Assembly: GCA_000002435.2 (NCBI GenBank)
Contig: CM018790.1
Reading direction: 5' to 3' (one strand)
Source of the DNA: Giardia intestinalis
Taxonomy: Eukaryota
DNA length: 64,000 nt
The translations under genes and the position numbers were made by a program. Shown piece after piece: positions 3,301 to 35,484 of the stretch. Positions within the stretch are counted from its first letter, which is position 1; each line of letters begins with the position of its first letter. The notes under the pieces were generated by a model. The model did no database searches. It saw nothing but the letters and a program-made list of their open reading frames with translations, and was not told the origin of the DNA.

Positions 3301-3712
3301 TCAGCTTCGGGCACTGTTAGATAAGCGCGAACAAGAGCTGGATGCAGCGGCCAAAGCAGTCGCTTATTATAAACGAGAGCTTCTAGCACGAGAAGAGTCC
3401 TACAACAAGCGATTTCATAAGGAGAACAGCCGAGTGGGAACTATGCAGATACCGGGCGTCCCTGCACACGCAATGAACGCCCAGCAAAACTCTATCGTAG
3501 GCAATATGATTGGAGCGCCACTGGGAACCGCGGGCCTCAGTGCGGGGGGCGTACCCATGGGATCCTTCAGTCAGACTGGTCCGCTCACGGGCCGTGTGAG
3601 TAAGGGGTCTGCTAGTCCAAAGGCTAAGCGTCCACTATCTAACAATGGGCTGGGCCCAAAGGGAGCTATAGGCCCCATCAGTATGCCAAAACACCTCCCA
3701 GCACCTCTTTAA
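356..3712 (+). CDS. Large coiled-coil protein (1118 aa; heptad-rich E/K/L/Q rod, SMC/myosin-tail-like), Gly/Pro-rich C-terminal tail
   Basis: True ATG at 356 preceded by ttaattcaaatttcagaaaATG (Giardia-type A/T-rich initiator). More than 1000 aa of uninterrupted heptad-like EKLQ-rich sequence. Many Giardia cytoskeletal proteins have this form. Confidence 0.75.
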   Translation: MASTGEQQLSIHQLLCKKVAQLTKVVYQLNVKSEDRDIDLNLIAKSYEAQIDQMATDNEQKVRQVQEQFRKHQQDLEAEVTKLLGDIKRLEKEKMQFLSKMNEYKKENEERMTRFKDVTKQRIDQLILEVDALRRDNVDDVRNSRKAAKDELARVSAELRGQNEALAAQLSQMTAARDRLQKELDAVRADLDKSTRDVDDLKQQLNAALKDKLSLSDVTQKKIAALEKQLEEARSQSLNSGDQINKLVKRIDSLEAELKTAQANYKQEVSTSTELKKEIAQLKTEIANWKQASDEHAAGSRELEKKLRELETRCAGLDKAVGEKDLLLKQLQQDKSQLNTEIDGLRKRIEDLQSKSTASSESERKLQLSLENATKEASFFRTQLSDANAKIDELKMQLAAERTAKEKAQTELTAASAQVVKLETELQRLRDEFITAQSSESNKYNQLEAKLRTLIQELEQSLVEEKINHEKALQAQRDTHEAESAALKAHISDQEKLHQEKVERLEQKISELETELSKSLSGLSSAQELNASLMQKTQDEIEALKTKVMKYKLLVDSIQVEIKQFCGSTKETCKLLLDALELSQRDISSLLDSQAETILLRVSQYITSMRNEADSSNTMKREYEELVGGLRRQIDGLNAELGKKTEQTATLTSEIENLKQLLENYRLELGSVRSDLDCKVRELAEITQRYQDEIRKADLSSKEIKELSKKIKCLEEQIAEMENTLGSTLNTTSAEAIQLKKQITELEARLAREMEAGHKLAAEKDQQIDTMKSELKSAQEKYLSRDREYKDLMEKLNITIADNNARTALLQKEHDEQLAKEQEKIKKLSDENLLLSGELERSKQALASLTDMHEKEIRALRKELAINQEALESMRESQRLSHEKIQGLEARLQHVTADAGRKLDEEFRKHQEALAALKKEHQEKINSLISEYEGRLTSANEQLAQAMAEAEKSRNELLFEIEGLKAEFKNRPSRLEDVELINQLRALLDKREQELDAAAKAVAYYKRELLAREESYNKRFHKENSRVGTMQIPGVPAHAMNAQQNSIVGNMIGAPLGTAGLSAGGVPMGSFSQTGPLTGRVSKGSASPKAKRPLSNNGLGPKGAIGPISMPKHLPAPL

Positions 3713-5959: not shown

Positions 5960-7378
5960 CTACATCCCGATATACTCAAGGTAGTCCTTGCTTTCTGCAG
6001 CCTCATACTCCTTACTTAGAGATGTACATACAGCTTGTGCATCCGTGAACTGCTCTAAAATTTCAGGCTCTCCTCCGGTTACCATGCTGTCGATGTAGTT
6101 TTGCAGATAGGCCCTCTTACTGAACAATTGTGTAAATGTATTGTTGATATTGTCAAAGATTTTACGGATAGCTGTGTGATTGGCCAGCATAAGACCGGAC
6201 ACCTTATGTGCTTCGTTAGTAAATGGAGAACGCTTGGATAAGGCCATCTGCATGTTACTTGGGCCCCAGTCAATAAACTTAACATCCCTGCCCTCCTTAA
6301 TCTGCTGAAGTGACTTATAAAGCTGATTGCTTTCGGCTTCACCCTGTACAATGTTCAGTAGAGAGATGTACTTTCCATCTCGGCCACAGCTCACCATCCC
6401 ATTTGTTGGGTGGAGAAGGCGTTTAACCAGCTGAACGATAGAATCTGTGTGGACCTGCCTGCGGGTGGCGCCAGCTGCGGCCCCTGCTACCGCTCCTGAC
6501 CCTGCCTCCTGGTCCTTCGTGTGTTCTTTTACATTCAAGCTTGATGAAGTTATGGGTGTATATGAACTCATCAAGAAGTGAAGGCGGGGAGTGGGCACCA
6601 GGCTGGACACCAGGCTAAGCAGGTCGTTGGACATAAACCCAGGAAGTCTCAAGGTGCTGGTGCTGGCTGCCATAACGGTGCTAACCAAGGAGTTGACGTG
6701 TTCAAACGGATTGGTAAGTAGCTCATTGGGTATATGATTAGTAATTATCCGATCGAGTGCGGTATTGTCCAGAACAACAACTGCATCCGCGCACAGTGCC
6801 AGGCGCTGAAGAGTTAGTATGCTATTGTAAGGCTGCACAATGATATCTGCCGTAGTGTTGGGGAAGACACTATAGGTCTGCAGCAGCGCCTTGGGATACC
6901 GATCAGAAAGTCTGTCAAGCAAGAAGCTGCCCATACCAGACCCTGTGCCACCGGCGATACTGTGGGTTAGAGAAAAGCCGGCCAATGAGTCCGCTCCGTC
7001 TGCTTCTCTATCAATAATTTCAACTATTTTCTCAAAGCCAGCTTCTCCACACTGGAACCCCTTCGTCCATATGTTGCCAGCTCCCCCACCCGTAGAATCA
7101 ATGTAAACGTTCTCAGGGTTGATCAACTCTTTGATAGGCCCGTTACGAATGTGACTGATCACGCCTGGCTCTGTATCTAGTAGGATGGCCCGGGGAACGT
7201 AGTGCTCGTCATCAGACTGATAGAAAAAGACATCCTTCCTGTCATTGAAGGTGTACGCCTCTGGCCTGAGAGTCCCGTCGGGATTTATGCCGTGTTCAGT
7301 GCACAACCTATTCCAGAAGACCTCGCCTATCTGGTTTCCACACTGGCCGCACTGAATCGTAATAACTTCTCTCGGCAT
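5960..7378 (-). CDS. Gamma-tubulin
   Basis: N-terminus [18 protein letters not shown] matches the gamma-tubulin start, and the tubulin signature AGGTGSG is present. Similarity to human gamma-tubulin runs throughout (DREADG, NTAL(D/N)RI, STIMSASTTTLR-type blocks). The protein has a Gly/Ala-rich insertion near the C-terminus. The true ATG is at 7376..7378; the track's 7435 start is not an ATG. Confidence 0.9.
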
Positions 7379-7478
7379 ATAAAACGCACTTACAAAGTTG
7401 CAGAATTGCTTCAAATTTTCAATATAAACGCACATTGCGAAGAGAAAAGGTACTTGTGTGTTGTTTTTGCGTCTTAAG
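7379..7478. promoter_or_regulatory. 100-bp A/T-rich divergent intergenic region shared by gamma-tubulin (-) and the 553-aa membrane glycoprotein gene (+)
   Basis: Both start codons face outward from this short A/T-rich stretch. Giardia promoters are short A/T-rich initiators directly upstream of the ATG. Confidence 0.4.
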
Positions 7479-9140
7479 ATGCAGGAGGAGGACTCTGCAG
7501 ACGCTCTGTTCCTCTCGCCAAATGCGAAGGGTTACATGGACAGCCTGCGTAAGGAGGGTCTCATAGTCAAACGAGATACAAACATAAAGCACCTCAACAA
7601 CTCTCCCTTGTACTACACCATCCGCCTCATCCTAATTATCTACCTAGTCACCTTCATTTTAGCAACCATTTATAACGCATCCGATTTGCTTTTTTGTTAC
7701 CTCCAGGCGCCAGTTCACAGCATTCGCATAAGAAATACTTCCCTGCCTACGGAGAATAAAGGCTTCCTGTTTAACGCATCAAGCTATCACCCAGGAGAAA
7801 CTATAGCATATTATTTGCAAGGATACCTGAAGGACGTCAACATCGTTGTTCTCGAGCCGTATGGTTTGAATACCAACTACGAACCCAACAGTATTGAGGA
7901 AAAACAAAATTATCTAATTAACATCGATCCAAATGTTACCCCACGCTTGATTCAAGGAGCGTTTCCAATGGCTATCGTGATGAACGGCACCAATAGTGCA
8001 GATCCTGCACACAGCATATGCATGGACTCCCTGTGGTTTACCACGTTTCCAAAGGCATCTGTCAGGCCCACAGATGGCGGTATTGCGGCTAGTGTCGATA
8101 TCCTCAACCCTAACAGAAAGCGTATATGGGTTAACTCCATGTGGTATAGCTTCTCATATTGGAGTAGCGTGGAGAGCATATACAGCGACACCAGGTTTAC
8201 GGACGACCAGAAGAAAGCACATGGTATACCAAATCTTTCAGACGTCCCCAAGACTAATTATTACTGTACAACACAAATATCCAGCATTCTTCCCAGTCAG
8301 TACAACAAGTCTAATGTTCCCATCTGGTTTATGAACCTTAGCGAAGCTTCTACTGCTAGACTAAAGGGAATTATCTGCTCTAGTAACTATGGATTAGTCC
8401 TCAATTTATCAACGTGGTTCTGCATTTCGCCTCTTCTAATTTATGACTTACGCCTGAAAAAAGTTATGCTATCTAATGTAACCTTTAACGGTAACTTAGT
8501 TTTAGATTTTAGAACAGACGAAAAAGATTCATCTATTACTCCCGAGACATTTTCCTGCTTACATCCTGAGGAATTCTATATACCATATAACTTAATATTG
8601 AATAACTCTTCTCTTAGAATCATGACGGTAACAAAAGACATTAAAGAGCTCGTCATAGACTCCTTTGGCCAATCCAGTTTTACATTCACTATTCCAAAGC
8701 GTGTGCTTACGTGTACACCAGGTAACATTTCACTTGGGGCACCCATTGCTGCCAACGAAGAGCCGTGCAGGCTAGAATTCAGTGGAATCTCTGGCGAGTC
8801 CTACTTTACTGGAGACTTTCACAGATACTACTCGGCTAGATACATAGCACCCTTGAACAAGCTCACTGAGCTCACGGTTGTTGTTAATCTCCATGTCTTG
8901 GACGATTTGACTCTTTCATTTCCATTTTGTTCGTCAAAGGTTACCCCAAAGTTTCCTTTGAACGTAATGGACTCTAGAAATAATGCAATTTTTTCACTTG
9001 ATTATGTTGAGGATGCAGAGATTGTATTTAAGGGTGCTTCTTCTAACACAGTAGGCCAACACTTTGTTGCTACAGTCACCTGCGACGGGGCGGGGCGGGG
9101 GTTCACGCTCGCGCTCCGGGCGCAGCCAGCCAGGCAGTAA
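7479..9140 (+). CDS. Type II membrane, N-glycosylation-site-rich hypothetical protein (553 aa); the last 23 codons lie inside the palindrome arm
   Basis: ATG at 7479 (aagATGcag); the track start 7458 is GTG. A single hydrophobic segment sits near the N-terminus ([22 protein letters not shown]) and there are many NxS/T sequons. The C-terminus ...[22 protein letters not shown] is encoded from 9071 onward by the inverted-repeat arm. The stop is embedded in AGTAAAC. Confidence 0.5.
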
Positions 9141-9142
9141 AC
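9136..9142 (+). promoter_or_regulatory. Giardia-type polyadenylation signal AGTAAAC overlapping the stop codon of the 553-aa gene (mirrored at 35561..35567 on the minus strand)
   Basis: AGTRAAY consensus, gcAGTAAACgagg, with the TAA stop at 9138..9140. Confidence 0.5.
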
Positions 9143-9218
9143 GAGGACACGAGGCGCCGCTCCCGGGCCACACAACACGGTACTCTGCCATCTGTTCTGG
9201 TATTTTTCTCCGCTCCGA

Positions 9219-9291
9219 GGGCGGTTAGCTCAGTTGGTAGAGCGCTTGCCTAGCATGCAAGAGGCCGGGGGTTCAAATCCCTCATCGTCCA
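9219..9291 (+). tRNA. tRNA-Ala (anticodon AGC), 73 nt, no intron
   Basis: Manual cloverleaf fold: acceptor GGGCGGT/ATCGTCC with the G3:U70 Ala identity pair; D-arm GCTC-AGTTGGTA-GAGC; anticodon arm CTTGC-CTAGCAT-GCAAG (anticodon AGC); T-arm GGGGG-TTCAAAT-CCCTC; discriminator A. The track ORF 9230..9562 (-) overlapping it is spurious. Confidence 0.85.
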
Positions 9292-9991
9292 CTTTCCGTC
9301 CCGCTCCACCGCACGGCCTGCAGCTCAGCGCGCCCTTGTGGGGCCTTGTCGTGCTCGCTGGGGCGCTTCCTGTTAATTTCTGGGGCCTTGCTCTTCGCCG
9401 TAAATGACCGACCTTGACCATGTGTGCTGTTCTGTACATGCAGCAGCTAGTTGTGAGCCGCGCCATCACCCCGTGGACGACCGTGGTCTGCAGCTTGTTC
9501 AGCGCAGCTTTCACTCGTTCTTGTAAGTATAAAGGCGCGCAAATCATCTCCCTGTTAGTCAATATACTCAGCTAGTGGGTCTACAGTGTGCCGAGACTAA
9601 AGCTCGTTGTAGAATTTATTGCAGGCATACTTAGAAGCACACAGGATCTTCACAGCGCACAGCACGAGTCTAAACTTATCTAGTGCTAAACTTTCGAAAA
9701 AAGACTGACAGTAGACTCGCTATCCCTGGTAAACGGGCATATATGTGTGAATAAAATACCAGTAAGGCTATGCAGAGCAGGGTCTACGTTGAAGAGGCCT
9801 GGATCTCGAAATGGAAAGAGAAAATAGAGCAAAAAAGTGAAGAATATTCTTCGAAAACAAGCGGCAGAAATAGTCCTAGATGCTAGATGAAGCATATCCT
9901 GGTCACAGAAGCCGCCGGCGACGCCAAATCACAACCGTTACGCTATATTAATGCATCAGATTGTGGCCATATATAATATTTGCAGAAGACC

Positions 9992-10945
9992 ATGGTTGGC
10001 TGCTGTCTATCACCCGCTGACCAAATTGAGGTCCTTCGTAAGCTAGCTGAAGAAGTTATCAGGGTACGAAAGATCCAAGAGACTGCAAATGATCTTGTTG
10101 CAAATCCTTACAGACTTTATACTTACGTTATAAAAACGTCTGTAAACTGGCGCAAAATTGCCACGGAGATCAACCAAAATCGCAACAGGATCTACCACTG
10201 GTACCGTGAAACGCATCTAAGAAACATTCTGAACATAAAGATGACAGAAGAAGATCGTCAGATTATCCGTGGAATTATCATAGATGGGATTGAAAGCAGA
10301 AGGATTGTGAGAGAAGACATCTATGGAAAGGTTCGCGAGAAATTTGGGAAAAAGTATCCACGCCAAGAATTGCGGATGACTTATAACAATATAATCAACA
10401 GCCGTAGTATCAAAACCCTCTTCAAGAAGTGCGGTATTCAGCATTCCTCGAGACGCAGCAGATCATGTGCGGCCATCCATCACCCATCTAGCGCAGAGCA
10501 GTGCCTCCCTAACGAGGAGGTGTTTAAACCACCCGTATTTCGCCTACCTGGTTACAATGATGAAACCCCATCTTCTCCTCAGGACGAAGACGAAACAGGG
10601 ACGTCTGTACCTGAGAACTCGCTATCTGCGCCACCAGAGTCTGTTGCTTGCAGCATTGTCGAGCCAAGGAACCTACCATCCAGCCTTTCCTTGGTTCCGC
10701 CCTTCGCGCCCACTCCTAGCGCTGCTCCGAATGTTTATCCGATCCCGGGTGTCTATCCGGCCCCTGGTGCCGTCCCTTATCTCCAGGCGTCGGGGGTGCT
10801 CAGTCTACAGCCGACGCCCTACCCCTTCGGCTTCGGGGTGCCGCTGACATACGTCCCTGTTCTGATACAATCGCCAGGACATACTGGCGGATGGCCCGTG
10901 GGCACGGGTGACGGTCCGCTCGGAAGGCCGACCAGGCAGCCCTGA
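9992..10945 (+). CDS. Myb/SANT-like DNA-binding protein with a proline-rich low-complexity C-terminus (317 aa)
   Basis: ATG at 9992 after atataatatttgcagaagaccATG; the track start 9980 is TTG. NWRKIATEINQNRNRIYHWYRETHL followed by MTEEDRQII fits the Myb-repeat pattern W..IA....R......W and the W-T-EED start of a second repeat. The C-terminal ~120 aa are P/G/Y-rich. Confidence 0.5.
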   Translation: MVGCCLSPADQIEVLRKLAEEVIRVRKIQETANDLVANPYRLYTYVIKTSVNWRKIATEINQNRNRIYHWYRETHLRNILNIKMTEEDRQIIRGIIIDGIESRRIVREDIYGKVREKFGKKYPRQELRMTYNNIINSRSIKTLFKKCGIQHSSRRSRSCAAIHHPSSAEQCLPNEEVFKPPVFRLPGYNDETPSSPQDEDETGTSVPENSLSAPPESVACSIVEPRNLPSSLSLVPPFAPTPSAAPNVYPIPGVYPAPGAVPYLQASGVLSLQPTPYPFGFGVPLTYVPVLIQSPGHTGGWPVGTGDGPLGRPTRQP

Positions 10946-12159
10946 GCCCCTGCTGCACCGCCTCGCACCAGAGGAGGAATCACGGTCTACAGCCAGAAGG
11001 GCAAAAGAGGCGCGTGGGTGGAAGCGCTCTCCCGATTTTCTTTTCGAGCTCGAACAGAACAGCCGTAGAGACTGTACGAAAACATCCTACAGTACCATCG
11101 AGGCCTCGCACGGAGGGGTTCTGAATGGACGAACGCCTAGGCTGGGAGCCATTCTAGAGCCGATTCTGGCCGAGGAAGGGGCTCCCCGCTTACGGGGGCA
11201 TGGCGGCTCCGCTGGCCACGTACGGCGACAGTTGCCGGGTCAGCGGCCCAGCCAAACCAGCGATGCCGCTGCGGAAGCCACCCCCGGCCCTGTCCCACAC
11301 AGTCGATGCCCTTGGCAGCCGCCTGCTCCAGTCCAGATCCACCCCACCGGCTGCGTGCCAGGGCCAGACATCTAGCAACCACAGAGACACGTCCACCGAG
11401 GCCGACACTGGCTGCACACACCGACCGGCGCGTCGATTCGAGGCACAGACGCGCATTTTTTCTTTTGTCCGGCGAGATTCCGGGCTGCGCTGGCTGCACG
11501 GATGCACGCAGCTGTTCCGCGCCGGCCGGGGCTTTCCGAGGCAGGCCTTGCGCGAGAACGCGACGTCTCGTGCAGGTCCACCGACCCTCTGGCGGGCCCA
11601 CGGCCGCGGAGTGTCCGTCCCTGTTGCGATGCAGTGCACACGGCTTTGTAGCACGTGCAGAGACCCAGTTGCCCTGCCCTGGCTGTGGCTCCTGCGCGCT
11701 GCGGCCAGCCACTGAGACCAGCCCCCATTGGAGCAGGCCACGGCAGGGCCCGCCGGACAAGCTCTCTACATGAGCACATGCTGCACAGCTTAGAGGCGAA
11801 CGCTGCACAGCCCGGCTAGTGCTCGCTGCCCCTATCGCTGCGTGGTACCTCTTCGTGAGACGACTGCGCAAGGCCACCCGATCGAGGGCTACGGCAGGAC
11901 GCAAAGAGTGGACTAGTTCAGGGCGTTGTGCATCTAGTAGGCCTGTGAGTACGCCTAGGTCGTGTATAGCTATTACATCAACATACTCATGTAGGTGGAT
12001 ACAACTGATTGCTCCGAATGGACTGGTTCTTGATGGCGTGGGCTGATGGAAGGACGCATTTGTATTACAGGTCCAAGCATAGAGGGTGGCAGCAGGAAAC
12101 GAAAAGTGGCCTGATTGCTGGTGTGCAGGTAAATGCAGCTATTTACATTTGACTTACCT

Positions 12160-12700
12160 AGCATACTGGATGATCATACTGATTGGATTCCGATAAAATG
12201 CATGCACGAGACTTACTGGTGTCTACTGATTTAAGAATTGAATGAGCAAACGCTAGGATAAGCTTGGTATGCCAATAGATAAATCACATTTAGGGAGGTA
12301 ACAATGAAATTTGTAGGAATAAAGAGACGCTCATAATATGCTGTTTCGATGATAGTAAAGGCTCTAGCACGAAGTTCATTAATCTATTATCAACAGAGAT
12401 AATAAGAAATCCAGGAGAAATGATAGCGAATCTATAATACACCCCATAAAAGGCTATAAGCACTATGGGATAATTAAGAAATGTGAAGGATATACCAGAG
12501 AATGTTATTTAAAAGGAAAGAAGTGCGTATTCAAAATCAGCAATAGTAACAAGGATAGCCTCGTTGCCAAGGATTCCATCACTGTCATCCTTATTGTCAA
12601 CCTTTCTGTCAGAGGTTCTTTTACTGTAGGAAAGTATAAACATAATCATCTATTTAAGTGGTAAACGCATCGTCTAACATCTGCTCAGCAGCCTTACACA
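12160..12700. other. ~0.5 kb A/T-rich island with no ORF inside the otherwise GC-rich arm (mirror 32003..32543)
   Basis: Abrupt composition shift visible by eye; stop-codon-dense in all frames. Confidence 0.4.
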
Positions 12701-13104
12701 GAAGTCCCGAAATAAGTAGTCACGGGGCAGAGTCTCCTGACGCTGCCAAATAAGCATATATAGTGCTCCCTCTGCATGGAGCACTGGAGGCCCGGCACGG
12801 AGTGGCCACAACTTCTCGTGGATACAGGCTGGTCGAAGCCGCTGGTGGCTGTATCCTCCAACCCCCTGCTTCAGAGCGTGGCTGCGCATGCTCTGCACGG
12901 CGCCTTCTCCTGCAGTGTCCGTGCGCTCGCCGGATGGAGCGAACCCAGCTAGCTACGCGGCCGCCACTGCAGGCCCCTCTTCACCCTGTATGCAGAAGCG
13001 CTGACCCGGGAAGAGGTGTCCCAGGGAGCCACGGGCAGCTGGTTGGAGTGAAACACGTTGGGACTTTTTGAAAATGGCCCTGTCCCGTGCCGGCCACGCG
13101 GCCT

Positions 13105-13725
13105 CTAGACCAGCGAGGCGAGGAGCTTCTTGATCCCTGGGCGCGCACGGTAGCCATCAGATAGCTCGCGCAGCGGTGGAAACTGGTCCACGAGCTCCGG
13201 ATACTCTGCGTCCGCATAATACAGGACCTCCAGGACCGCGTAGTCCGAATAGAGCGGCTCGGGAGCCAGGCTCCGGAGGCTCAGCACGTCCCGGGTCAGA
13301 ACGGTCAATCCCGGAAGGATCCTGTTCTGTCGGTAGGCCGCGATGCACTCCGAGCGCGTCATCTCTGCCCCAGCGGCAAGGGCCTCTGCCACGGCTTCGG
13401 GCTCCTTCCAGACGGCGGCAAGAAGATCCTCACAGAAGAGCACCAGGGCCCGCGCAGCAGCCTGCACCTGCAATGACGTGCTGTACCGCCCCAGGCTCGC
13501 CCCCAGGTACTCTAGAATGACCATGCCCCCGGCCACCCGCGCTGCGCTGTCTTCCCACACGGGGAGCGTGCACGATGGTGCACCTACCTTCGCCGCGGCC
13601 ACCTGCTCAGCGCTCGCCAAGGGCGCCCACTCGTACCGTATCTCCAGGTCTGCGAGCAGGAGCCGGCACTTCAATGCGGTGCCCCGGGCGTCGTAGTACG
13701 TGAGTCTCGGCGGAACTACGTCCAT
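13105..13725 (-). CDS. Glutathione S-transferase-like protein (cytosolic Tyr-type, alpha/sigma-like), 206 aa
   Basis: MDVVPPRLTYYDARGTALKCRLLLADLEIRYEW aligns with the GST N-terminal motif (LTYFNMRGRAEIIRYIFAYLDIQYE in sigma-class HPGDS; [25 protein letters not shown] in alpha class), including the catalytic Tyr. TLPVWEDSAARVAGGMVILEYLGA matches the lPvle.dg..l.qS.AI..Yla block. The C-terminal helical domain ends ...PELVDQFPPLRELSDGYRARPGIKKLLAS. Internal ATG at 13723..13725 preceded by ggaagtaaaATG; the track ORF extends to 13773. Very GC-rich coding sequence. Confidence 0.6.
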   Translation of the reverse strand: MDVVPPRLTYYDARGTALKCRLLLADLEIRYEWAPLASAEQVAAAKVGAPSCTLPVWEDSAARVAGGMVILEYLGASLGRYSTSLQVQAAARALVLFCEDLLAAVWKEPEAVAEALAAGAEMTRSECIAAYRQNRILPGLTVLTRDVLSLRSLAPEPLYSDYAVLEVLYYADAEYPELVDQFPPLRELSDGYRARPGIKKLLASLV

Positions 13726-14803
13726 TTTACTTCCCCGGTGGGCTCGTATCAACCGTGCCAAGGTGCGAGGCAACCCCTGGCACGCGGGCCGCCTCTCCCA
13801 GGGGGAGATCCTTGGGTTTCAGTTTACAACCTGAGCACCAGCTTCGTGTAGCTGCTATGCATTGCTAGCTACTACTGCCTGCATAGATAGTGGTGGGGTT
13901 GGGGTGGACACTAGGCTGGCGCGGTTTATGGAGGTCGTCTGCCTCCCGGGTCGCTTGAACCTAGCCGGAGTCTTCCCATTGGACCCTCTAAGTCATATCA
14001 CGAATCATAGGACGGATAAACTAGCCCCTAGCGGGTCAAAAGGGTCGGCAGTGATCGCAGCCACTGTGTCACTCGAGGACCTGTTGAGGCCCGGGACTCT
14101 GCAGAAGCCCCTCACTAGCTCGGTCTTGAAGTCCACGCTCTTGTGTGCCAAGATCCACGTCTTGTTATGCGTGCCGTGCTTTCCAGTACAATCGTGCTTA
14201 TACTTGTCGCCCTCTCTAATGCAGCTTCTAATGCTACCATGACGGGAGTTCTCGCTGTTTTGTACTTCATGTTTGTCAACACGGCCTAGGTGCCCTGCTG
14301 TCTGCTCTGCAGTCGCTTTATCTCCTGCTAAAAGGAAGTGAGAGCTCTTGGGTATCCGGTAAGACGTCCGGGCAAACGCGATAATGCTTCGATGAGTGTA
14401 CGTTAGTCGCATCGGCACAGAGCGCGTGCTAACCGGACGAAGCCATGTGCCTGCTGACTTCTATACAATATTCTAAGGCTATCCGGTCTCTGCATGGCAC
14501 CGCCAGGTGTGTAGTGGGGCCTGTGGCCATTAAGACCCAGAAGAGCCTCTTCTCCTACTTGGCTTCGGAGTCACTCCCAGTAGAGTATTGTTATGAGGCT
14601 GGTGTGCAGAGAAACACCGAATAGTTTGTACCGGTACACATGACCCCTTATCCCCAGACGGCACTCGCCATGGCTAGGCATTCGTAGAACCGCAGCATCG
14701 TGGGCTTGTGCACCGCTCACTGCCCATGCACGTGTAGCTGCAGACACACAAGCCAGTCGAGAGGCGCTTGCTTGCCCGGCTCCCTCATCACTGTTCAGAA
14801 CAT

Positions 14804-16466
14804 CGAACTCCTTATGCGAGCCACCGCCGCCCTGGGCAAGCGGGTCTCCCTCATCCCTGCATCAACCAAGATCAAAACCTAGAGTTCGAACTCAGGTGTC
14901 AAGCGACTCTGGTGGGAGAAAAAGAACTTTTGTTCTGCCCTCTTCCCAAGAACGAGACAGGACAACCACGATCAGGGGACGATCATGATACGCTCCACAA
15001 GGCAGCCCCGAGCCGCCTGGAGACCAGACCCTGGCCTTCCTCGAGACCTAGCAGATTGCGTTCCACTGGATGTACATGGGTGGCGTTTGCATGGCGCAGG
15101 GAGACGCAGGCTGATGGGTACAGCGGTCTTGCTCGACATAATGAACTCCAACAGTAGACGGCCTCTGCCAGGCGAGTGTGCCCCGTCCCGAGGAGCTGCG
15201 TCGGGGCCTTCCTCCGGCTGCGACACACGAGGTATCTGGACTCGGTCCCTCAGGGCCCTGCGCATGCTTCTGTGCTGCGGGAGACAGAACCTGCTCGCCA
15301 GGAGCTGAAGGAGAGGCCCCGCTCAGTACCCATGCCGACGACACATTCAGCTTCCATAGTGACGACAAGCCTGGCGAAACGCTATAGCTCGACGGTCAAC
15401 ACTGGGTGTGGGAGCACTGAGGGGCAGGAGGCCTCCTTTCTAACTAGTCTCGAAGGAGCTTCCAAGACAACGAAGAGCCGAAGCTAGTGATGATGCGCCG
15501 ATCATTTGCCACGCTTGTCGAGATGGACCCACACGTGACCTATGTGAATCCCTCGACAGGCAAGTCGGCCCTTGGGGTGCTTGGCTGACAGAGGCGGACT
15601 GATCCCGACCGCACCGAAGAGTGGTAGCGGCTTGGACCACCTGCCGGGCGTCTGCCGCAGTAGCTGGCAGTGTCTGACATCCTCGAGTAGATGGGCGCCA
15701 AGCGAGACGGCCTGAGGGTGAACCAGTCCTGACCGCTCCCGGTGTCTCAGACGACGCCTCTTAGAGAGGTGGCCCTGGACCGACGCCTCGACAGACCGAA
15801 GCATCACCCCAGGTGTGCTGTGCGGTGTGAAGACGGACGTAGTCCGCATCGTCAGCTGAGCCAGACGCACTGCACAGGGTGAGCGTCGACATGATCTCGT
15901 GCTAGGTGATGGACCACCTGCAAGAGCGCACTGCGATCCATGGGCAGAGGGATGGGCCTCTTCCCCGACACCACCGCATGGGATTACTCCATCGGCATCC
16001 ATGAACGCGTACTCTGACTCCAAGACAGAGGCGTACGGGGGGCGCGCTCTCCCGGTCATACTCGGGACCGATGATACAATCCACGAGGAGACGAAGAGGC
16101 ACCCCGAGGAACGGGGTAGACACCCGGGGTCGTGGCGTATCCCATCTTCGTCGTAGAGCATCAGCGCCACAAAGCTACTCCGGAGTACATGGCCAGAGTC
16201 AAGCTTCCAAGGCCAGATCCTGTGACCGACGGCAGGCCCTGATATAGCGGGTGTCCACCCAGGTGCCAGACGATAGTTGACTCCGATGGGTCAGAGGAAG
16301 GGAAGTCCTAGAGGGCACCGCGAGGAGCGGCAGCTTCCAGGGGAAGCGGGAATAGGAGTTCTTCCGCCGGGATCAAGGGCATCCGCCTCTCGAACTCTGG
16401 ATTTGGATCTCGGCTGGTACAGGGGCGAGAGAGACTCGCTTGCCCAGGGTGGCGGTGGCTCGCATG
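14804..16466. mobile_element. Candidate non-autonomous element (~1.66 kb) bounded by ~80-bp terminal inverted repeats (mirror copy 28237..29899)
   Basis: 14804..14883 (atgcgagccaccgccgccctgggcaagcgggtctccctcatccctgcatcaaccaagatcaaaacctagagttcgaa) and the reverse complement of 16388..16466 align at roughly 85% identity. Each TIR carries a GC hairpin (GCGAG-AGAGA-CTCGC) and a GAGTTCGA(A/G) box. No convincing ORF inside and no clear target-site duplication. Confidence 0.35.
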
Positions 16467-19400
16467 GGAAGATTACTCAGATAGCAGGCGACAGCCCCAC
16501 CCCGGCTAAAAAACTTGAGGCAGCCGTTGCACCCGCCGCCCCCAGGACAGAGCTTCTGCACGCATGGCCAGCTGCCCTCGTCAGTCCGGTCTACTGGTCC
16601 AATAGTCTGGGGACCCTTTACGCCGTTTTCTGGCATACGATGTATCGCAACTGCTCATGGGAGTAAGCAGTATGAAAAGGCAATTGCATGTGTGGACAGC
16701 GTGTTATGCTCGTCTCAGAGGACCGATGTGTCTAAATACGGATCGCTGTACTGAGCCACACGCCCCACTGTCTTGCGCCAGTGACTGCCTCCACCACTGC
16801 ACTTGCTACAATGGAGCTGTGTCGGCCCAACAGATTGAACATGCCCCATATCGGCTCCCTCTGACGATGCGTACACGCCGCATAAGGTCTGATAGTAGAG
16901 CGGACACCGTGTGCCGAGGCGTCTGCCATTGATGGGAGACAGCACTTGGTTGCACCAGAGGTGCCTTTATGTAGGCCTACAATCTCTGTGCCTGCCCATC
17001 CACCGGTTGTAATGACAACTGCACACTCGGAAAGGCGCTATGGAAAGCTGCCTTTCAAGATGAGACGTAAACCCACATATAAAGCCAGAAGCAGAACCTT
17101 GTGCACAAACTGTTATGATCCTAGTGTGGTGACCGGTTTGGACTGCGGCACGCTCCTCGCCTATCTTATGTTCGTTTGCATGGTCGCTGCTAATGTTGAA
17201 CAGGACTGCGAGGAGATCTGTCTTTGGCTGCGCTCATCTTATAACACTTACCCCTTGATGACACACCTTAGCAAAGGAGGATGTCAGCCAGGTGCGTAGA
17301 AGGCTGCCCGTGCATGACGATTCCTGGAGAACTGGTTCATACAGAGAAGGTAGAGGTGACTAGCGGACCAGTTGGGCAAGGCTGACACCAGAGAGGCCAG
17401 CCACCGACCTGGATTGCAATAGGGACGCCTGTAGTGTCTTTCTTCCCTTCGGGTGTAGAAAGGTCGTGAGGCCCGCGGACAAGCTAGACGCTGCTTTCTG
17501 ATTTTATGCATTTGTAGCAGCATAGTGTTTATAGGGGTCTGCTTTGCCTGAGGCCGAGGACGTTCGCTTCCTCCTCGTATACGGACGAAGATCGGTTATA
17601 AGGATACACTGTGCAGGCTGGTACCAGTCGACGTGGTTGCTGTCCACAAATGTCTCGCCTGCGTCTTCTCATGGCAGATGATTACTAGCAGCGCTCTCAG
17701 CCCACGTGGCTAAGTCTACGGTGCATCTCCATTTCGGTCAAGGGTTGTATACGCATTACGTAGTCTGATTGATCATCAGCCAGGATAGTGTGGTCCACTC
17801 CTGTCCCCTGCTTGTCCATCTCGTGCAACTACTGCTGATGGCTTTTCTGGGTCAGTGGGTGCTTCCGTCAGTCCCACAAAGGAATGTGTCATGCAGACGG
17901 CCACTACAGGCAAGAGTCTTGTCTATCAAGAAAAGGGTCAATCGGTTTACTGCGTGGGGATCCTCTGTGCGTCTCATATAAGCCCGGCAGACCTTGTGCC
18001 CCCAGTATCTCCTCACAAGCCCCACCAGGCTCTTTTACCGTCTGGAATATCGCTACTGCCAAGCACCTTAGCTTCACTTGGCCACCCAGGGCGTTGACCC
18101 TTTGCAGCGCACTGTGGGCGTACTCACTGTGGGAGATGCACAATCAGCATTGGTCTTCTCAGCTCATCGTCTGTATGGTACTATGCTGCTTCTCAGCACA
18201 ACCCATTCTGTCGACCAGCAGGCCTTCAGACCAGGCAGCATCCCACCAAGGGGCGGTAGCAGGGACCGTGACGCGTATCTCCACCAAGGCACGGCCTCCT
18301 GGGGCATGAAGCGGGACCTCTGCCATCCTGTGGCCCTACTGATTCCTCGGATAGCAGAGATCGGAGCAGCCTAGGCTAGCGCCTTTGGGTCTCCATCTGT
18401 TCTCGTTGTCTGAGGTATACTTGACTCCAGAGACTCAGAAGGGTGCTGTACTATGTTCGTGCCTACGAGTCTTAGCCAGGCAGGGCTACCCTCTTGGAGA
18501 TTGCGCTGAGGTAGCCACATACCTGGAGCTCACCACAGCGGACCCACAGGGTCCAATCCATGGAACCCTTACCTGTCGAATGCAGGCCGTAATTGCAGCC
18601 CCACTGGTGCAGACTTTCTTAGAATAACCGGTCGACTATAGAGCCCCCCCCCACTCAGTCCACGTGAATGGACCACTCTCATCGATGGCCTACCTTGCAC
18701 GCCGAACGATCCCTACAGGCGAACAAAAATCATCCAGCCCGTAGCAGTGGACATCCTCTACACCGATGAATGGATGATCACAGCAGCCGCTTTCCTATTG
18801 AAGATTCTCCAGCCACTGAGGCCCAGGCCGGCCTCCTGCAGGATTCTTAGCAGGATCGTGCCCGATGCATGTTTGTGGCACTCCCCTCAAGGTGTATTCT
18901 GTTGGACCTTCGCTTCCTATACTGGCCTGCGAACATCGAGCCCTTCTAGCGGGGCCATACTGGAGATCACAAGGATATGGTGTCTTCGGAGACTATCCGG
19001 CTTCTGAGCCACACAATAGGGGCCCACTTCTCGCAGCAGCATCACGGAGAGGTGTATAGAGCTATACCATACCCTCTACCAGGTGACATGATGCATAAAT
19101 TAAGGGTAGGACACTTACACCGATCGGCATATCTACCCATGACCAGACACAGATTGGCCCGAAGGTAGCAATTAAATGTTGCTCGACACCCTTATCAGTG
19201 GATGGGCGCCCAACTACCCTGGTACCCGTACGAGGCCACAAGGGGCGCTGGGTCATAGATCTACTTAATGGCTGAGAAAGCGGCATGGACGCATCAGACC
19301 CCCATTCTTTCTATTCAAGTAGCCCACGACAGAGAGCCCTTTGACACTCCACACCCACAGGTTCGGGGTGCTGCGGGCAATCGTACTCCACTATTGCTTG

Positions 19401-20223
19401 CAGCGGATGGCATCAGGATAACCTTGGGTGGGAGAGAGTTGACTGGCCCAGAAAGCAGCGGTTTGGATAGCGTTTCCTCTCTGCCCAGGCTTGGAAGGTC
19501 TAGCCTGCGCCTTCTGCGCTTCACCTGACACCTCGTTGTGTACTGGGGTGGCTTATTAGTATTTACTCCAAAAGATCAAAACTAGCGCCATGTGCACTTA
19601 GCAGGCCGGTGCGCCTCGTTAGCTAGTTTATGCTGGCTTACGCCTTCCACAGACTCTAGCGGCTGCTGGGATCTTCTCTCGGGATCCAGCAAAGGTTTGT
19701 CTTTGAGCGTAGCTCCCCTGCGACAGCAAAGGGTCGCGGGCATGATCTGGTGGGTGGGAATACTAGGAGCGGATAGGAGAGTGCCGGCATACATGGGCCC
19801 GTAGAGCTCTAACCAGCGCAGGGAAGTGCAGGTGTCTGGCTCTCCGGAAATGCAGAGGCGCCGGTAGCGGGCATGGGCACAGTGGGGGCGCCCGGGCTGT
19901 CCTCCGATTGGCCGCGGAGAAGGGGGATGCCCGGCGCACGGGACGGTTCTGCTGTTTGCTTTTAGAATTTCTACTTCCTTGCGTGCTTTGCAAGGAGTGC
20001 GGGGCTCCTCGGATGTCGCTTGGCCAGGCCTGGAGGGCCCGCGATGGACGAGGTGGTGGGCTTATATAATGAACGCGTTTGGCATTCGCTGGGCTCCTCC
20101 TTCCTAGACCGAGGTATCGTAGGAGTAGGGTCTCTTCGGACTACCTGCATAGCACAGTCAGATAGACGTTTTTAGCTCTAACTATCGGACTCTTATCTAT
20201 GTAATAAGCCGAGAGGGATATCA

Positions 20224-20991
20224 ATGTTACTCATAGCCTTCTACCTTGTGCTAAGTACGCTCGCTGTCCGGCATACAACAAATCACCACTCTGAATATCT
20301 ACGCTCGGGATCTCGGTCTAATAGAGATACAGGCAATCGTGATAATGCATATGCTGCAGGGAACTGCAAGGACGGGATGGAAGAGCAGGTCGGCGCGGAT
20401 ACCGTGTGCAAGCAGTGCAACGCAGGGTTTGTCCCCATAAACGGAGTCTGCACCGCACAGGGCACCCCATCAATTGCGACCGCAGGGTGCAAGCTGGCCA
20501 ATAATGACCCTCCTGGACAGGACTCCACTGTGTGTGAGCAGTGCGGAACAGACGCCACTTACTTCCTATACAAGGGCGGATGCTACGACGCCAGCACAGG
20601 CGTGGGGCAGAGCCTTTGTAAGCGCGCATCTAACGGAGCCTGCACAGAGGCGGGAGAAGGCTACTTTGCTGCACCAAACGCCAAGGCTACCGAGCAGTCT
20701 GTTATCCCGTGCTCGGACACGACAGGGGTGACTCTCACCGGAGATAAGCAATACGTGGGGGTGGAGAACTGCGCGACGTGTGATGCTCCAGCTGGAGATG
20801 AAACGGTAGCAAAATGTAAGACATGTAGTGACAGATTCAGTTTAAGAGACAACCAATGTGTGCCTTCTAGCGTCAACAAGAGCGGCCTTTCTACCGGCGC
20901 CATTGCGGGCATCGCCGTGGCTGCTGTCATAGTTGTTGGTGGTCTCGTTGGGTTCCTCTGCTGGTGGTTCCTCTGCCGGGGCAAGGCGTAG
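20224..20991 (+). CDS. vsp: Variant-specific surface protein (VSP), short form, 255 aa
   Basis: N-terminal signal peptide MLLIAFYLVLSTLA; four CXXC motifs (CKQC, CEQC, CATC, CKTC); GGCY motif (YKGGCYD); C-terminal TM helix IAGIAVAAVIVVGGLVGFLCWWFL; terminal CRGKA pentapeptide plus stop. AGTAAAC polyA signal 13 nt downstream. Confidence 0.92.
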   Translation: MLLIAFYLVLSTLAVRHTTNHHSEYLRSGSRSNRDTGNRDNAYAAGNCKDGMEEQVGADTVCKQCNAGFVPINGVCTAQGTPSIATAGCKLANNDPPGQDSTVCEQCGTDATYFLYKGGCYDASTGVGQSLCKRASNGACTEAGEGYFAAPNAKATEQSVIPCSDTTGVTLTGDKQYVGVENCATCDAPAGDETVAKCKTCSDRFSLRDNQCVPSSVNKSGLSTGAIAGIAVAAVIVVGGLVGFLCWWFLCRGKA

Positions 20992-21003
20992 ATGTACTTA
21001 GGT

Positions 21004-21010
21004 AGTAAAC
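21004..21010 (+). promoter_or_regulatory. AGTAAAC polyadenylation signal of the VSP gene (mirror 23693..23699 on the minus strand)
   Basis: ggcaaggcgTAGatgtacttaggtAGTAAACgcg. AGTRAAY lies just downstream of the stop. Confidence 0.55.
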
Positions 21011-21355
21011 GCGTTACTTTATGTAGCTTATGTAGATGTGCTGCTAGGCTCACTTGCTGGTGTGTCCAGAAGTTTCACGAGTAAATCCTCGTTCAAGTCC
21101 TGGCTGTCCAAAGACGAGAACTGATTGTGGATAACATGACGGAGAGTCCTCTCCAGTGATGCATCCAGAGCCTGGTGCGCTCCTCTGCCGTTTCGCAGGC
21201 GTGTGCTCAGGCTGAGTATGCACGTCGGTCCTTTCGGGGTTCAGGCCTTCTCGTGGACTCTCTGCTCTACCAGCGGTGTCTCTCCTTGGTCTTCCTTCAC
21301 GGTGGGTGAAGCTTGGATCGCCGTCTTTTTTAGATGCCCCGTCTGTCAGGGGCTG

Positions 21356-23347
21356 CCATCGGGCTCTCCGCTGGCCGCCCCTCGGTGTCCGTCCGGCTGT
21401 GTCCCGGGTCAGCGCTTCTACAGTCGCGGTCACGTAGGTCTCAGTGGGCCAGCTGGGGGGTGGGGCGGGGGTATGGGCGGTGAGGCTGGAGGGGACCGGG
21501 TGGGGGCTGAGGTGGGGTGTCCGTATGTGATCCTGGGTCCGGTGGGTCATTGCGGTGGTGGGTGATCCCCGCTCTGTTTGCTAAGGTGGTTGTGTCTGAT
21601 CACCAGCCTGCGTTGCACTCCCGAGACAGAGGCACCGACGATCGTGTCGTGTCCCCCGACTGAGCGCCTCCCTTAGCCCCTGCATGTCTCAGGCAGTACT
21701 GCTGCTCTGTCTGGCTGGTGCGTGAAGGGTGAGGCAGGCCATCGCAGCCCCTCCTGATGCTCTGCGCGGGTCTGCTGAGCCCCTGGCATGCCCTGTCCAG
21801 TGCCTCGACGGGGAGTTCGCCTCGGGCCAGCAGGGGTGTGGATGACCTTGTGAATGGGATGGGGTTCTCTCAGGCCTCTAGTGTGATGGCCCAGAAGACT
21901 GGCACGGTGGGGCACCAGTGACTGCACTGTCCCCGTGGTCAGCTGTGCTGCTCCTGGTGGGTCCTTGTCATGGAGCGCTGTGTGTTGTTCATAGGCAGAG
22001 GTGATCCCTCTTGGTCTCAAGATGCTCTACCAGCAGAGAGAAGCACGCTGAGGGTCACCCAACATCACCTGCTGTGTCCTCTTGGGAGTTCCCGATGTGA
22101 TCTATCAGGACCTTGACACCTCCTCGTGGCTCTGATGACCCCTCGGGGAGAGCCGGCATCCTATACTGAGGGGCGTACACCTTCCTGCATGAGCTGGGCC
22201 CCACTGCACTGCCCCCAAGGAGGTCTGCTATGAGAGGCAGTGGGATGATTGACAGCCCCTCAGAGTGCGGTGGAGGGTGCTCGTGGTCATCTCTGTGACC
22301 GGGCATCACTCATGATGGTCGGCTCTGTGCCTTATGGTGCTCAGAGACCACCTGTGCTCCATCGCCTGCTGGACAGCCGGGCCTCTTGTGGCGTCCGAAG
22401 GTCTCCTCACTCCTCTGGTCACTGCCCCCTCGGATCATCGGTGGAGGCCAGCGAGTCTTCGGAGTCTGGTGCCTGCCTGGGTGTCATGGGGGGCTGGCAG
22501 CTGTCAAGGCTCTGCCACTGCTCACCTGCCTGGAGTGTGCCTCCCTTGGGCCTGCTTTGCTGTGCTGCTTGAGTCCTCTGGCTTCTATCAGGCCCTGGTT
22601 GTGAGGGTGACCCCACCTGGCCTTCTGATGCCCCTGTGGATGAGCATAGCAATGTGTCTGGCTGGGGATCTCTAGTGCCCGTGTCTGTCACTGCCTCTCG
22701 GGTGCTCGGGTAGTTGCCTGGCGCTCTCGTATGGGCACACAGTCAGCGTATGTGGGTGGTCCTCCTGCACTCGTGTCCGTCTGTGTGCACTGTCACTCAG
22801 TCTCGAGAGCAGGCCAGTGCAGTCACCAGGGCTGCTGTCAGAGGGAGTCGTCTGCCACTACCATCGCTCGAGCAGCCCCTGCAGATCAGGCTGGTTGCTG
22901 TGCACCCTCATGGCAGGGCTGCTTGGCTCCCTTGGTCTCCTCTCTGTCCCGGTGTGCACGGCTCCTTCGGGTGGCTGACGGGGTAGTGGCCTCCGGTGAG
23001 TCTGCACTGGGAGGCACCGAGGAGGGAGGACAGCTAGGCTGGCACCACTCTCTGACTCCTGAGGGTTGCCTGGATGGAGGCACTCACGAGTCCACAGAGG
23101 GGTGAGTTATAGATACACAGCCCCCAGTCACCACAGCTGCGATCACCCCAGTCTATCGAGTGGCCAGGGGCACAGACAACACCGCTCCAATGGCCCACCA
23201 GTCCCCTCCAGCCTCACCGTCCCATACTCCCGCCCCACCCACCATCCGAACCCACTGAGACCCAGGTGACTGCGACCGTAGAGCGCTGACTCGAGTCACA
23301 GCCGGACGGACACCGAGGGGCCCAGCCAGGGGAGAGCCCCGACAGCA
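21356..23347. other. Central spacer of the palindrome (~2.0 kb, GC-rich): the outer ~200 bp on each side are a degenerate (~80% identity) palindrome and the core ~1.6 kb is unique and non-palindromic
   Basis: Direct comparison of 21356..21560 with the reverse complement of 23140..23347 shows substitutions and indels. The symmetry centre (22351/22352) is not self-complementary. Only short overlapping ORFs of the GC-rich type. Confidence 0.7.
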
Positions 23348-23711
23348 ATCACCGAGTCAGACGGGGCATCTAAAAAAGACGGCGATCCAAGCTTCACCCA
23401 CCGTGAAGGAAGACCAAGGAGAGACACCGCTGGTAGAGCAGAGAGTCCACGAGAAGGCCTGAACCCCGAAAGGACCGACGTGCATACTCAGCCTGAGCAC
23501 ACGCCTGCGAAACGGCAGAGGAGCGCACCAGGCTCTGGATGCATCACTGGAGAGGACTCTCCGTCATGTTATCCACAATCAGTTCTCGTCTTTGGACAGC
23601 CAGGACTTGAACGAGGATTTACTCGTGAAACTTCTGGACACACCAGCAAGTGAGCCTAGCAGCACATCTACATAAGCTACATAAAGTAACGCGTTTACTA
23701 CCTAAGTACAT

Positions 23712-24479
23712 CTACGCCTTGCCCCGGCAGAGGAACCACCAGCAGAGGAACCCAACGAGACCACCAACAACTATGACAGCAGCCACGGCGATGCCCGCAA
23801 TGGCGCCGGTAGAAAGGCCGCTCTTGTTGACGCTAGAAGGCACACATTGGTTGTCTCTTAAACTGAATCTGTCACTACATGTCTTACATTTTGCTACCGT
23901 TTCATCTCCAGCTGGAGCATCACACGTCGCGCAGTTCTCCACCCCCACGTATTGCTTATCTCCGGTGAGAGTCACCCCTGTCGTGTCCGAGCACGGGATA
24001 ACAGACTGCTCGGTAGCCTTGGCGTTTGGTGCAGCAAAGTAGCCTTCTCCCGCCTCTGTGCAGGCTCCGTTAGATGCGCGCTTACAAAGGCTCTGCCCCA
24101 CGCCTGTGCTGGCGTCGTAGCATCCGCCCTTGTATAGGAAGTAAGTGGCGTCTGTTCCGCACTGCTCACACACAGTGGAGTCCTGTCCAGGAGGGTCATT
24201 ATTGGCCAGCTTGCACCCTGCGGTCGCAATTGATGGGGTGCCCTGTGCGGTGCAGACTCCGTTTATGGGGACAAACCCTGCGTTGCACTGCTTGCACACG
24301 GTATCCGCGCCGACCTGCTCTTCCATCCCGTCCTTGCAGTTCCCTGCAGCATATGCATTATCACGATTGCCTGTATCTCTATTAGACCGAGATCCCGAGC
24401 GTAGATATTCAGAGTGGTGATTTGTTGTATGCCGGACAGCGAGCGTACTTAGCACAAGGTAGAAGGCTATGAGTAACAT
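23712..24479 (-). CDS. vsp: Variant-specific surface protein, second copy (identical protein), convergent with 20224..20991
   Basis: Identical 255-aa translation ending CRGKA. The 3' ends of the two copies face each other across 2720 bp. Confidence 0.92.
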   Translation of the reverse strand: MLLIAFYLVLSTLAVRHTTNHHSEYLRSGSRSNRDTGNRDNAYAAGNCKDGMEEQVGADTVCKQCNAGFVPINGVCTAQGTPSIATAGCKLANNDPPGQDSTVCEQCGTDATYFLYKGGCYDASTGVGQSLCKRASNGACTEAGEGYFAAPNAKATEQSVIPCSDTTGVTLTGDKQYVGVENCATCDAPAGDETVAKCKTCSDRFSLRDNQCVPSSVNKSGLSTGAIAGIAVAAVIVVGGLVGFLCWWFLCRGKA

Positions 24480-35411: not shown

Positions 35412-35484
35412 TGGACGATGAGGGATTTGAACCCCCGGCCTCTTGCATGCTAGGCAAGCGCTCTACCAACTGAGCTAACCGCCC
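35412..35484 (-). tRNA. tRNA-Ala (AGC), second copy
   Basis: Exact reverse complement of 9219..9291. Confidence 0.85.

Follow-up and report, generated by a model that had tools for sequence, protein, structure and literature searches.

In the papers that we found, EF1B-gamma is the only Giardia protein with a glutathione S-transferase (GST) fold to be discussed, and its GST-like N-terminal domain has no known GST activity (PMC5377010). Two papers on NBDHEX state that Giardia has no GST gene, one of them adding that it has no glutathione cycling, and from this absence they argue that NBDHEX does not act by inhibiting a GST (PMC4450592, PMC5377010). Here we describe a GST-like gene on the minus strand at positions 13105–13725 of a 64,000-nucleotide stretch of the Giardia intestinalis genome (assembly GCA_000002435.2, contig CM018790.1), hereafter the window, and compare the encoded protein with described GSTs.

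Cysteine is the main non-protein thiol of Giardia (PMC6934886). Jimenez-Gonzalez et al. (2019) reported GSH1, GSH2 and a glutaredoxin-like protein in Giardia species and Kipferlia, and a loss of the corresponding genes in the ancestor of the Hexamitinae (Spironucleus, Trepomonas); glutathione reductase was found in no Fornicata, and thioredoxin reductase can reduce glutathione (PMC6934886). The gene for glutamate-cysteine ligase (GL50803_16001), like that for glutathione synthetase (GL50803_15429), is up-regulated in mid-encystation (PMC8700996), and a metabolic reconstruction proposed glutathione-dependent arsenic detoxification for Giardiinae (PMC7762791). GSTs are not mentioned in any of these three papers. 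An earlier note on this DNA, made from the sequence alone, had taken Giardia to lack glutathione metabolism; with GSH1, GSH2 and a glutaredoxin-like protein reported and expressed, and cysteine as the main thiol, that premise does not hold (PMC6934886, PMC8700996). A survey of oxygen detoxification in Fornicata, covering 25 protein families, left out the GST-like family.

The open reading frame (ORF) of the window gene runs from ATG to TAG and encodes 206 amino acids; a TTG-extended frame reaches position 13773. It contains the peptides LTYYDARGTALKCRLLLADLEIRYEW and LPVWEDSAARVAGGMVILEYLGA, so that the intact minus-strand ORF and both peptides quoted in the earlier note were recovered. The protein matches exactly the entry XP_001708273.1/KAE8302024.1/UniProt A8BBE3 from G. 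intestinalis ATCC 50803 (isolate WB), which GenBank, RefSeq and UniProt all list as "Glutathione S-transferase-like protein" and which is placed on a contig of 1,539,535 bp. We read it as a functional Tyr-type GST-fold protein that would conjugate or isomerise substrates or bind ligands, using glutathione at an altered affinity, and we put the probability of this reading, the identity of the protein included, at about 60%.

GST fold and family membership

The GST fold of the window protein is established by profile, sequence and structure comparisons. The protein passes the Pfam GST_N_2 profile (27.3 bits, cutoff 25; E 5.5e-6) and lies just under the cutoff of GST_N (20.0 against 20.9 bits); its orthologues P0004 and P0036 exceed both. 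The proposed Pfam check came out divided, with GST_N_2 over its cutoff and GST_N and GST_C_3 under theirs. Homologues from Fornicata and from the amoebozoan Ceratiomyxa pass GST_C_3 with 29–54 bits, so homology is supported transitively for the Giardia protein. Full-length alignments to GSTs of the pi and alpha classes were obtained by phmmer against the PDB, with E-values down to 7e-6.

An AlphaFold2 (AF2) monomer model, computed from a 25-sequence alignment, has a mean pLDDT of 95.0 and a pTM of 0.90; an alignment of the five Giardia sequences alone gave an unusable model (pLDDT 52). The model comprises a thioredoxin-like beta-alpha-beta-alpha-beta-beta-alpha domain followed by an all-helical domain (residues 85–205). 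A Foldseek search of the PDB with this model returned 630 matches at E<=1e-3, and the best 50 of the 630 are all GSTs, nearly all of them alpha or pi, with TM scores of 0.71–0.76 and identities of 18–23%. The window protein thus has a cytosolic GST fold and belongs, as a very divergent member, to the Tyr-type (sigma/pi/alpha-like) lineage. This agrees with its earlier assignment to the alpha/mu/pi/sigma type, for which the equivalence of Y10 to Tyr7 and of L54-P55 to Leu52-cisPro53 of human GSTP1, the GST_N_2 match, the PDB alignments and the Foldseek matches all speak.

Glutathione-binding site

Residues of the glutathione-binding site (G-site) were read from a MAFFT alignment of the family with human GSTP1; the positions are mapped by sequence and not from a ligand-bound structure. 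Equivalents of Tyr7 (Y10), R11-G12 (R14-G15), Lys44 (K46), Leu52-cisPro53 (L54-P55), Asp98 (D100) and Asp152 (D161) are kept. Y10 aligns with GSTP1 Tyr7 in HMMER and MAFFT alignments alike and is invariant in one family alignment (A3), the sole replacement in the family being Phe in Kipferlia. L54-P55 is invariant across 25 to 27 sequences, with the cis-Pro assigned by alignment, and D161, the N-capping Asp of helix alpha-6, is conserved in at least 90% of the aligned sequences.

Other positions are replaced: Arg13 by T16, Trp38 by E40, Gln51 by T53, Gln64 by G66 and Ser65 by G67; in addition, the lock-and-key residue Tyr49 corresponds to S51. A Q/E-S/T motif at the start of helix alpha-3 holds the gamma-glutamyl group of glutathione in GSTs. 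At the position of Ser65, the window copy and the chromosome 5 paralogue P0001 (both assemblage A) have Gly, G. muris has Ala, and assemblages B and E, like the orthologue L001, have Ser. Throughout the protist clade described below, Gln64 corresponds to Gly or His, and most sigma-like outgroup sequences have Q-S or E-S. Two details of the earlier description must consequently be withdrawn: the S-x-A-I-x-x-Y-L motif lacks the serine of Q-S in the window copy, where the aligned residues are G66-G67, and a G-site in which the equivalents of R13, W38, Q51, Q64 and S65 are all substituted is not that of a canonical GST N-terminus. Judged from these alignments, the thiol-activating scaffold appears to be kept and much of the recognition of the glutathione ends appears to be changed. 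The thiol substrate is uncertain, because several glutathione-contact residues, including those of Q-S, are replaced.

Relatives and origin

Orthologues occur in G. intestinalis assemblages A2, B and E (DH, P15, GS and assemblage-B isolates), in G. muris and on environmental Giardia contigs, so that at least five independent Giardia genomes or metagenomes carry the gene. An exhaustive hmmsearch with a Giardia profile against 1.84 billion (1.84e9) cluster representatives yielded only 30 proteins at E<=1e-3. The best match outside G. intestinalis was TNJ27416.1 of G. muris, also annotated as GST-like (E 1.9e-52), followed by P0037, a protein from a Logan contig (E 4e-22). Further matches came from a metagenome, from the Fornicata Dysnectes brevis, Kipferlia bialata and Chilomastix cuspidata, and from the amoebozoan Ceratiomyxa. 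The weak tail of the 30 matches is made up of animal GSTs of sigma type, among them an octopus S-crystallin (S-crystallin 4-like), a GST1-like protein of a scallop, a GST of a mite and one entry with the name "prostaglandin-H2 D-isomerase / glutathione transferase".

In a neighbour-joining tree of 27 taxa with 100 bootstraps, Giardia and P0037 (contig L002) group with 100% support, within a Fornicata clade (71%) and an enclosing protist clade (81%). Animal sigma-like sequences fall outside the protist clade, and the branching is congruent with the relationships of the organisms. With Fornicata as the nearest outside relatives and such congruence, the gene was inherited vertically, with accelerated divergence in Giardia, and was not transferred from a metazoan. 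The suggestion that it is metazoan-like or horizontally acquired is contradicted by the same data: its closest relatives are Fornicata and an amoebozoan, and Giardia lies within the Fornicata clade. An ancient transfer into the ancestor of Fornicata is possible at present sampling.

The family is present in Giardia and Kipferlia, and none of the 18 of the 30 profile matches that carry an organism name is from Hexamitinae (the other 12 carry none). On this sequence sampling, the distribution of the family would parallel that of GSH1 and GSH2, which is suggestive.

Three of the relatives deserve separate mention. The Kipferlia bialata protein GIQ80603.1 (P0041) has 580 residues and carries the GST-like domain at its C-terminus (residues about 380–575), joined by a long low-complexity linker rich in Ser, Thr, Pro, Ala, Val and Glu to a ubiquitin-family domain at the N-terminus (27.2 bits with Pfam ubiquitin). 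The contig L001 (Logan ERR3333381, 17.8 kb, 38% GC) encodes at 174–818 a Giardia-lineage orthologue with 68% amino acid identity to the window protein, which groups with an assemblage-B-like sequence (99% bootstrap) and has neighbours that differ from those of the window. The contig L002 (Logan SRR31929897, 20.6 kb, 59.5% GC) encodes at 2832–3482 the sister of the whole Giardia clade, at about 30% identity; it possibly belongs to an unsampled diplomonad, and most of its neighbouring genes have no Pfam match. A search for synteny of L001 or L002 with the window gave no meaningful match (one 27% match over 95 amino acids).

Selection and expression

Orthologue DNA was recovered for two sequences, the assemblage-B-like L003 (71% amino acid identity) and L001 (68%). 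Between WB and L003, the Nei-Gojobori method gave dN 0.166, dS 1.76 and a dN/dS of about 0.09. Between WB and L001, the proportion of synonymous differences is saturated (pS 0.87) with pN 0.19, a pN/pS of about 0.22, and 114 positions are invariant over five Giardia sequences. The orthologues in at least five Giardia genomes or metagenomes and the dN/dS of about 0.09 show that this is no chance ORF; it is a genuine, selectively maintained Giardia gene.

A transcript level was found for the chromosome 5 paralogue GL50803_0060225, listed with a log counts per million (logCPM) of 2.37 in an RNA-seq table (PMC9094438, Table S4). This paralogue is transcribed, but weakly, and reads from identical copies may be under-counted. 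The gene name is absent from the text form of encystation RNA-seq supplements, and a literature search by accession and locus tag returned nothing on the GST-like gene.

Genomic context

The features of the locus are as follows.

13105–13725, minus strand: GST-like coding sequence, copy 1, 206 amino acids (ORF, exact look-up, Pfam GST_N_2, PDB alignment, AF2, Foldseek)
30978–31598, plus strand: GST-like coding sequence, copy 2, 100% identical DNA (DNA comparison, tblastn)
9071–21345, no strand: left arm of a 12,275-nt inverted repeat, carrying copy 1 (repeat search)
23358–35632, no strand: right arm of the inverted repeat, carrying copy 2 (repeat search)
20224–20991, plus strand: 255-aa VSP with a CRGKA end, at the inner end of the left arm (Pfam VSP, E 2e-30; chromosome 2 pair d117204/117204)
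23712–24479, minus strand: mirror 255-aa VSP, at the inner end of the right arm (chromosome 2 pair d117204/117204)
12701–14100, no strand: local GC island, 57–68% GC, covering the coding sequence and both non-coding flanks (GC profile)
13726–13736, minus strand: A-rich stretch GAAGTAAA-ATG, directly 5' of the start codon (sequence; orthologue comparison)

The repeat search of the window found one perfect inverted repeat, whose two arms of 12,275 nt each are 100% complementary and are separated by a spacer of 2,012 nt. Each arm holds one copy of the GST-like gene, the two being identical over 621/621 bases, and tblastn across the window found no GST-like copies or fragments beyond these two (each 100% over 206 amino acids). 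The duplication of the gene into two intact, identical copies was thus rightly recognised from the sequence, as was its VSP neighbour, the CRGKA-tailed ORF mirrored in the other arm. Isolate WB has at least four copies, all intact; the paralogues KAE8304971.1 and KAE8304978.1 lie on a 4.02-Mb contig, and the chromosome 5 paralogue P0001 differs from the chromosome 2 copy in 8 residues.

The two VSP ORFs converge across a gap of 2,720 bp. Table 2 of the chromosome-scale WB genome paper lists for chromosome 2 the pair d117204/117204, orientation '-> <-', 255 amino acids, at a distance of 2720 bp; the genome has 12 such converging VSP pairs and multi-gene duplications of up to 20 kb, and the surroundings of VSPs are described as gene-poor and variable (PMC7000408). 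Since the window pair fits this row exactly, the palindrome is one that had already been documented, and it carries the GST-like genes as passengers.

In each of the three lineages compared, the ATG follows a short stretch rich in A, the orthologue forms being GAATAAA-ATG and GAAGAAA-ATG. By its sequence this stretch appears to resemble the short A/T-rich initiator of Giardia.

The central spacer (21346–23357) has 63% GC, contains short ORFs only, with no recognisable domain, and falls inside the gap between the converging VSPs. A similar gap of about 2.5–2.8 kb is found in all 12 of the '-> <-' VSP pairs listed for WB, suggesting a common spacer element. Outside the left arm lie a 491-aa tubulin-family protein (5960–7435, minus strand; Pfam Tubulin, E 1e-55, and Tubulin_C) and a 1,118-aa coiled-coil protein (356–3712).

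GC content

The gene is GC-rich, as had been noted: 65.5% GC and 78.7% GC at third codon positions (GC3), against a GC3 of 45–58% in six neighbouring ORFs; the sequence outside the arms has 46.5% GC. GC-richness had been taken as a possible sign of foreign origin, which its distribution does not bear out. Orthologues have a GC3 of 37% (L001) and 61% (L003), with gene GC contents of 41% and 53%, and roughly follow their own genomic background. The island extends over about 12,700–14,100 and includes some 400 bp of non-coding sequence on each side; the preceding segment (12,301–12,700) has only 34–37% GC. The protein is affected as well, with 35% Gly, Ala, Arg and Pro (GARP) in WB against 22–25% in other orthologues of the G. 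intestinalis group, and 16.5% Ala.

Because flanks, synonymous sites and amino acids are all biased, a mutational or gene-conversion process is indicated and not foreign origin or translational selection; the high GC content probably reflects local mutational or gene-conversion bias in a recombining multi-copy region. Selection for GC-ending codons through high expression was considered and rejected, given low expression, the extension of the island into non-coding flanks and the shifted amino acid composition.

Further GC-rich patches (62–64% GC) lie at 10900–11900 (mirror 32800–33800) and at 15000–16200 (and its mirror). Both strands carry several long ORFs there, overlapping in more than one frame and with no Pfam match, which resemble chance ORFs in GC-rich non-coding or pseudogene sequence; the patches alternate with others of 34–46% GC.

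Proposed function and alternatives

We propose that the protein is most likely still a thiol-dependent transferase, isomerase or ligand-binding GST. From the end of strand beta-1, the hydroxyl of Y10 would activate a thiol that is bound beside the cis-Pro loop. The thiol would most probably be glutathione, made via GSH1/GSH2 or taken from bile-rich intestinal fluid. As the pocket is remodelled (Q64->G, S65->G, R13->T, W38->E, Q51->T in GSTP1 numbering), its affinity and specificity are probably unlike those of textbook GSTs.

Several observations weigh against this proposal. Of about ten glutathione-contact positions, five are replaced, including the near-universal Q/E-S motif, and the kept Tyr is no proof of catalysis, cephalopod S-crystallins keeping it and Kipferlia having Phe. 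The window protein falls short of the GST_C_3 cutoff (18.2 against 21.6 bits), and all Giardia orthologues score 18–20 bits or not at all. The only paralogue found in an expression table has low expression, and the searchable literature holds no proteomic or biochemical evidence. For Hexamitinae, absence is judged from protein databases and from the 18 named matches among the 30, and the gene-conversion account of the GC content is one that we infer.

The heavy substitution of the G-site (R13->T, W38->E, Q51->T, Q64->G, S65->G) would also suit a non-catalytic GST fold that has lost glutathione binding and acts as a ligandin or carrier (of bile salts, fatty acids, haem or drugs) or serves as a module for protein interactions. 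In the PDB, the family profile has an S-crystallin chain as its second-best match, an octopus S-crystallin is among the 30 remote matches, and the Kipferlia homologue combines fusion to a ubiquitin-like domain with Phe at the Tyr position; EF1B-gamma provides a precedent for a GST-like domain without known GST activity (PMC5377010). We regard this as a real but unlikely alternative, since Y10 is invariant in every family member except Kipferlia despite saturated synonymous divergence, K46, D100 and the cis-Pro loop are retained, and the distribution of the family parallels that of the glutathione-synthesis genes. A transferase acting with another thiol, free cysteine or gamma-glutamylcysteine, would explain why the thiolate-activating Tyr and the backbone contact to the Cys moiety (L54-P55) are kept in a pocket remodelled at its Gly end (W38, Q51) and gamma-Glu end (Q64, S65, R13); the whole protist clade, moreover, has Q64->G/H in common as a derived state. 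We know of no precedent for the use of a cysteine-type thiol by Tyr-type cytosolic GSTs. Although Giardia has cysteine as its main non-protein thiol (PMC6934886), this is a long shot: the residues in contact with the Gly and gamma-Glu ends, K46 and D100, are still present, Q64->G is also found in the free-living Dysnectes and Ceratiomyxa, and no sequence feature specifies cysteine. It is likewise doubtful, though conceivable, that the Giardia and Fornicata proteins form a distinct, undescribed protist class of Tyr-type GSTs whose pocket, with Gly/His for the universal Q/E and Thr for the catalytic-site Arg, was rebuilt for another thiol or for a new mode of glutathione binding, and whose retention in Giardiinae and apparent loss in Hexamitinae would track those of GSH1/GSH2. 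Such a class would imply a thiol-conjugation detoxification route in Giardia that the drug-resistance literature assumes to be absent.

A decaying, functionless duplicate carried along in a VSP-associated duplication would fit the gene-poor, rearrangement-prone VSP region (PMC7000408), the low paralogue transcript level and the loss of the Q-S Ser in assemblage-A copies. It is nevertheless very improbable, as all copies are intact, dN/dS across assemblages is about 0.09 (pN/pS about 0.22 at saturation), 114 residues are invariant in five Giardia sequences, and the family is retained from G. muris to G. intestinalis. To a GST acquired horizontally from a metazoan or bacterium, or to contamination by host or bacterial DNA, we give practically no credence. 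GC and GC3 are indeed atypically high compared with the neighbours, and the best PDB matches are mammalian pi and alpha GSTs, which has little weight since the PDB holds no Fornicata GST. The gene lies, however, inside a 1.54-Mb Giardia chromosome near a CRGKA-tailed VSP; it occurs in WB, DH, P15, GS, assemblage-B isolates and G. muris as well as on environmental Giardia contigs; Fornicata are its closest non-Giardia relatives in a congruent tree; its identity to animal GSTs is only about 21%; and orthologue GC tracks the host genome. Chromosomal context, the many Giardia genomes and the Fornicata relatives refute recent transfer and contamination, and the occurrence of the gene in independent Giardia genomes and metagenomes excludes its being confined to contaminant contigs.

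Neither the gene and its name nor the palindrome is new, since public reference annotation and the genome paper contain them. Absent from the searchable literature are the restriction of the family to Fornicata and a few other protists, the remodelled G-site and the conflict with the statements that Giardia has no GST. The reference genome contains at least four copies of a conserved, stand-alone GST-fold protein under purifying selection, together with GSH1 and GSH2, against papers stating that there is no GST. If the protein binds thiols or electrophilic drugs, this would bear on the detoxification of nitro-drugs and arsenicals and on experiments with GST inhibitors. As a genomic finding it is ordinary, an annotated and vertically inherited gene in a palindrome of a published VSP type, and a reasonable target for a small biochemical study.

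Comparison with known GST-fold proteins

In the PDB, the Giardia protein is matched best by human GSTP1-1 and GSTA1-1 (pi and alpha classes), in single-sequence search and in structure comparison alike. It keeps the equivalents of GSTP1 Y7, K44, L52-P53, D98 and D152, whereas those of R13, W38, Y49, Q51, Q64 and S65 are all substituted. Identity to the human pi and alpha proteins is 21–22%, with a root-mean-square deviation of 3–4.8 A in most of the matches listed, and the C-terminal helix of the alpha class is missing.

With the sigma class (haematopoietic prostaglandin D synthase, helminth and mollusc GSTs, S-crystallins) the protein shares the same two-domain architecture of ~200 residues, a Tyr at the end of strand beta-1 followed by an R-G motif, the L-P cis-Pro loop and the capping Asp of helix alpha-6. 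It lacks the aromatic "key" residue of the alpha/mu/pi dimer contact (GSTP1 Y49 -> S51), and this residue of the lock-and-key contact is not known from the sigma class either. Unlike that class, the Giardia family has G-G or G-S in place of the Q-S gamma-glutamyl motif and Thr at the position equivalent to Arg14; the C-terminal "RPxTxF" tail of the sigma-like matches is absent, and identity to them is only about 20–26%.

Members of the protist clade (G. muris TNJ27416.1, Dysnectes, Chilomastix, Kipferlia GIQ80603.1 and Ceratiomyxa) are true homologues that share the derived Gly/His at the position of Q64. Free-living members have a recognisable GST_C_3 domain (29–54 bits) and a conserved C-terminal SG(N/K)R(F/Y) tail, both of which the Giardia proteins lost. 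EF1B-gamma, by contrast, belongs to another GST subfamily, is fused to an EF1-gamma domain and has a CXC motif, whereas the window protein stands alone and has a Tyr-type N-terminus.

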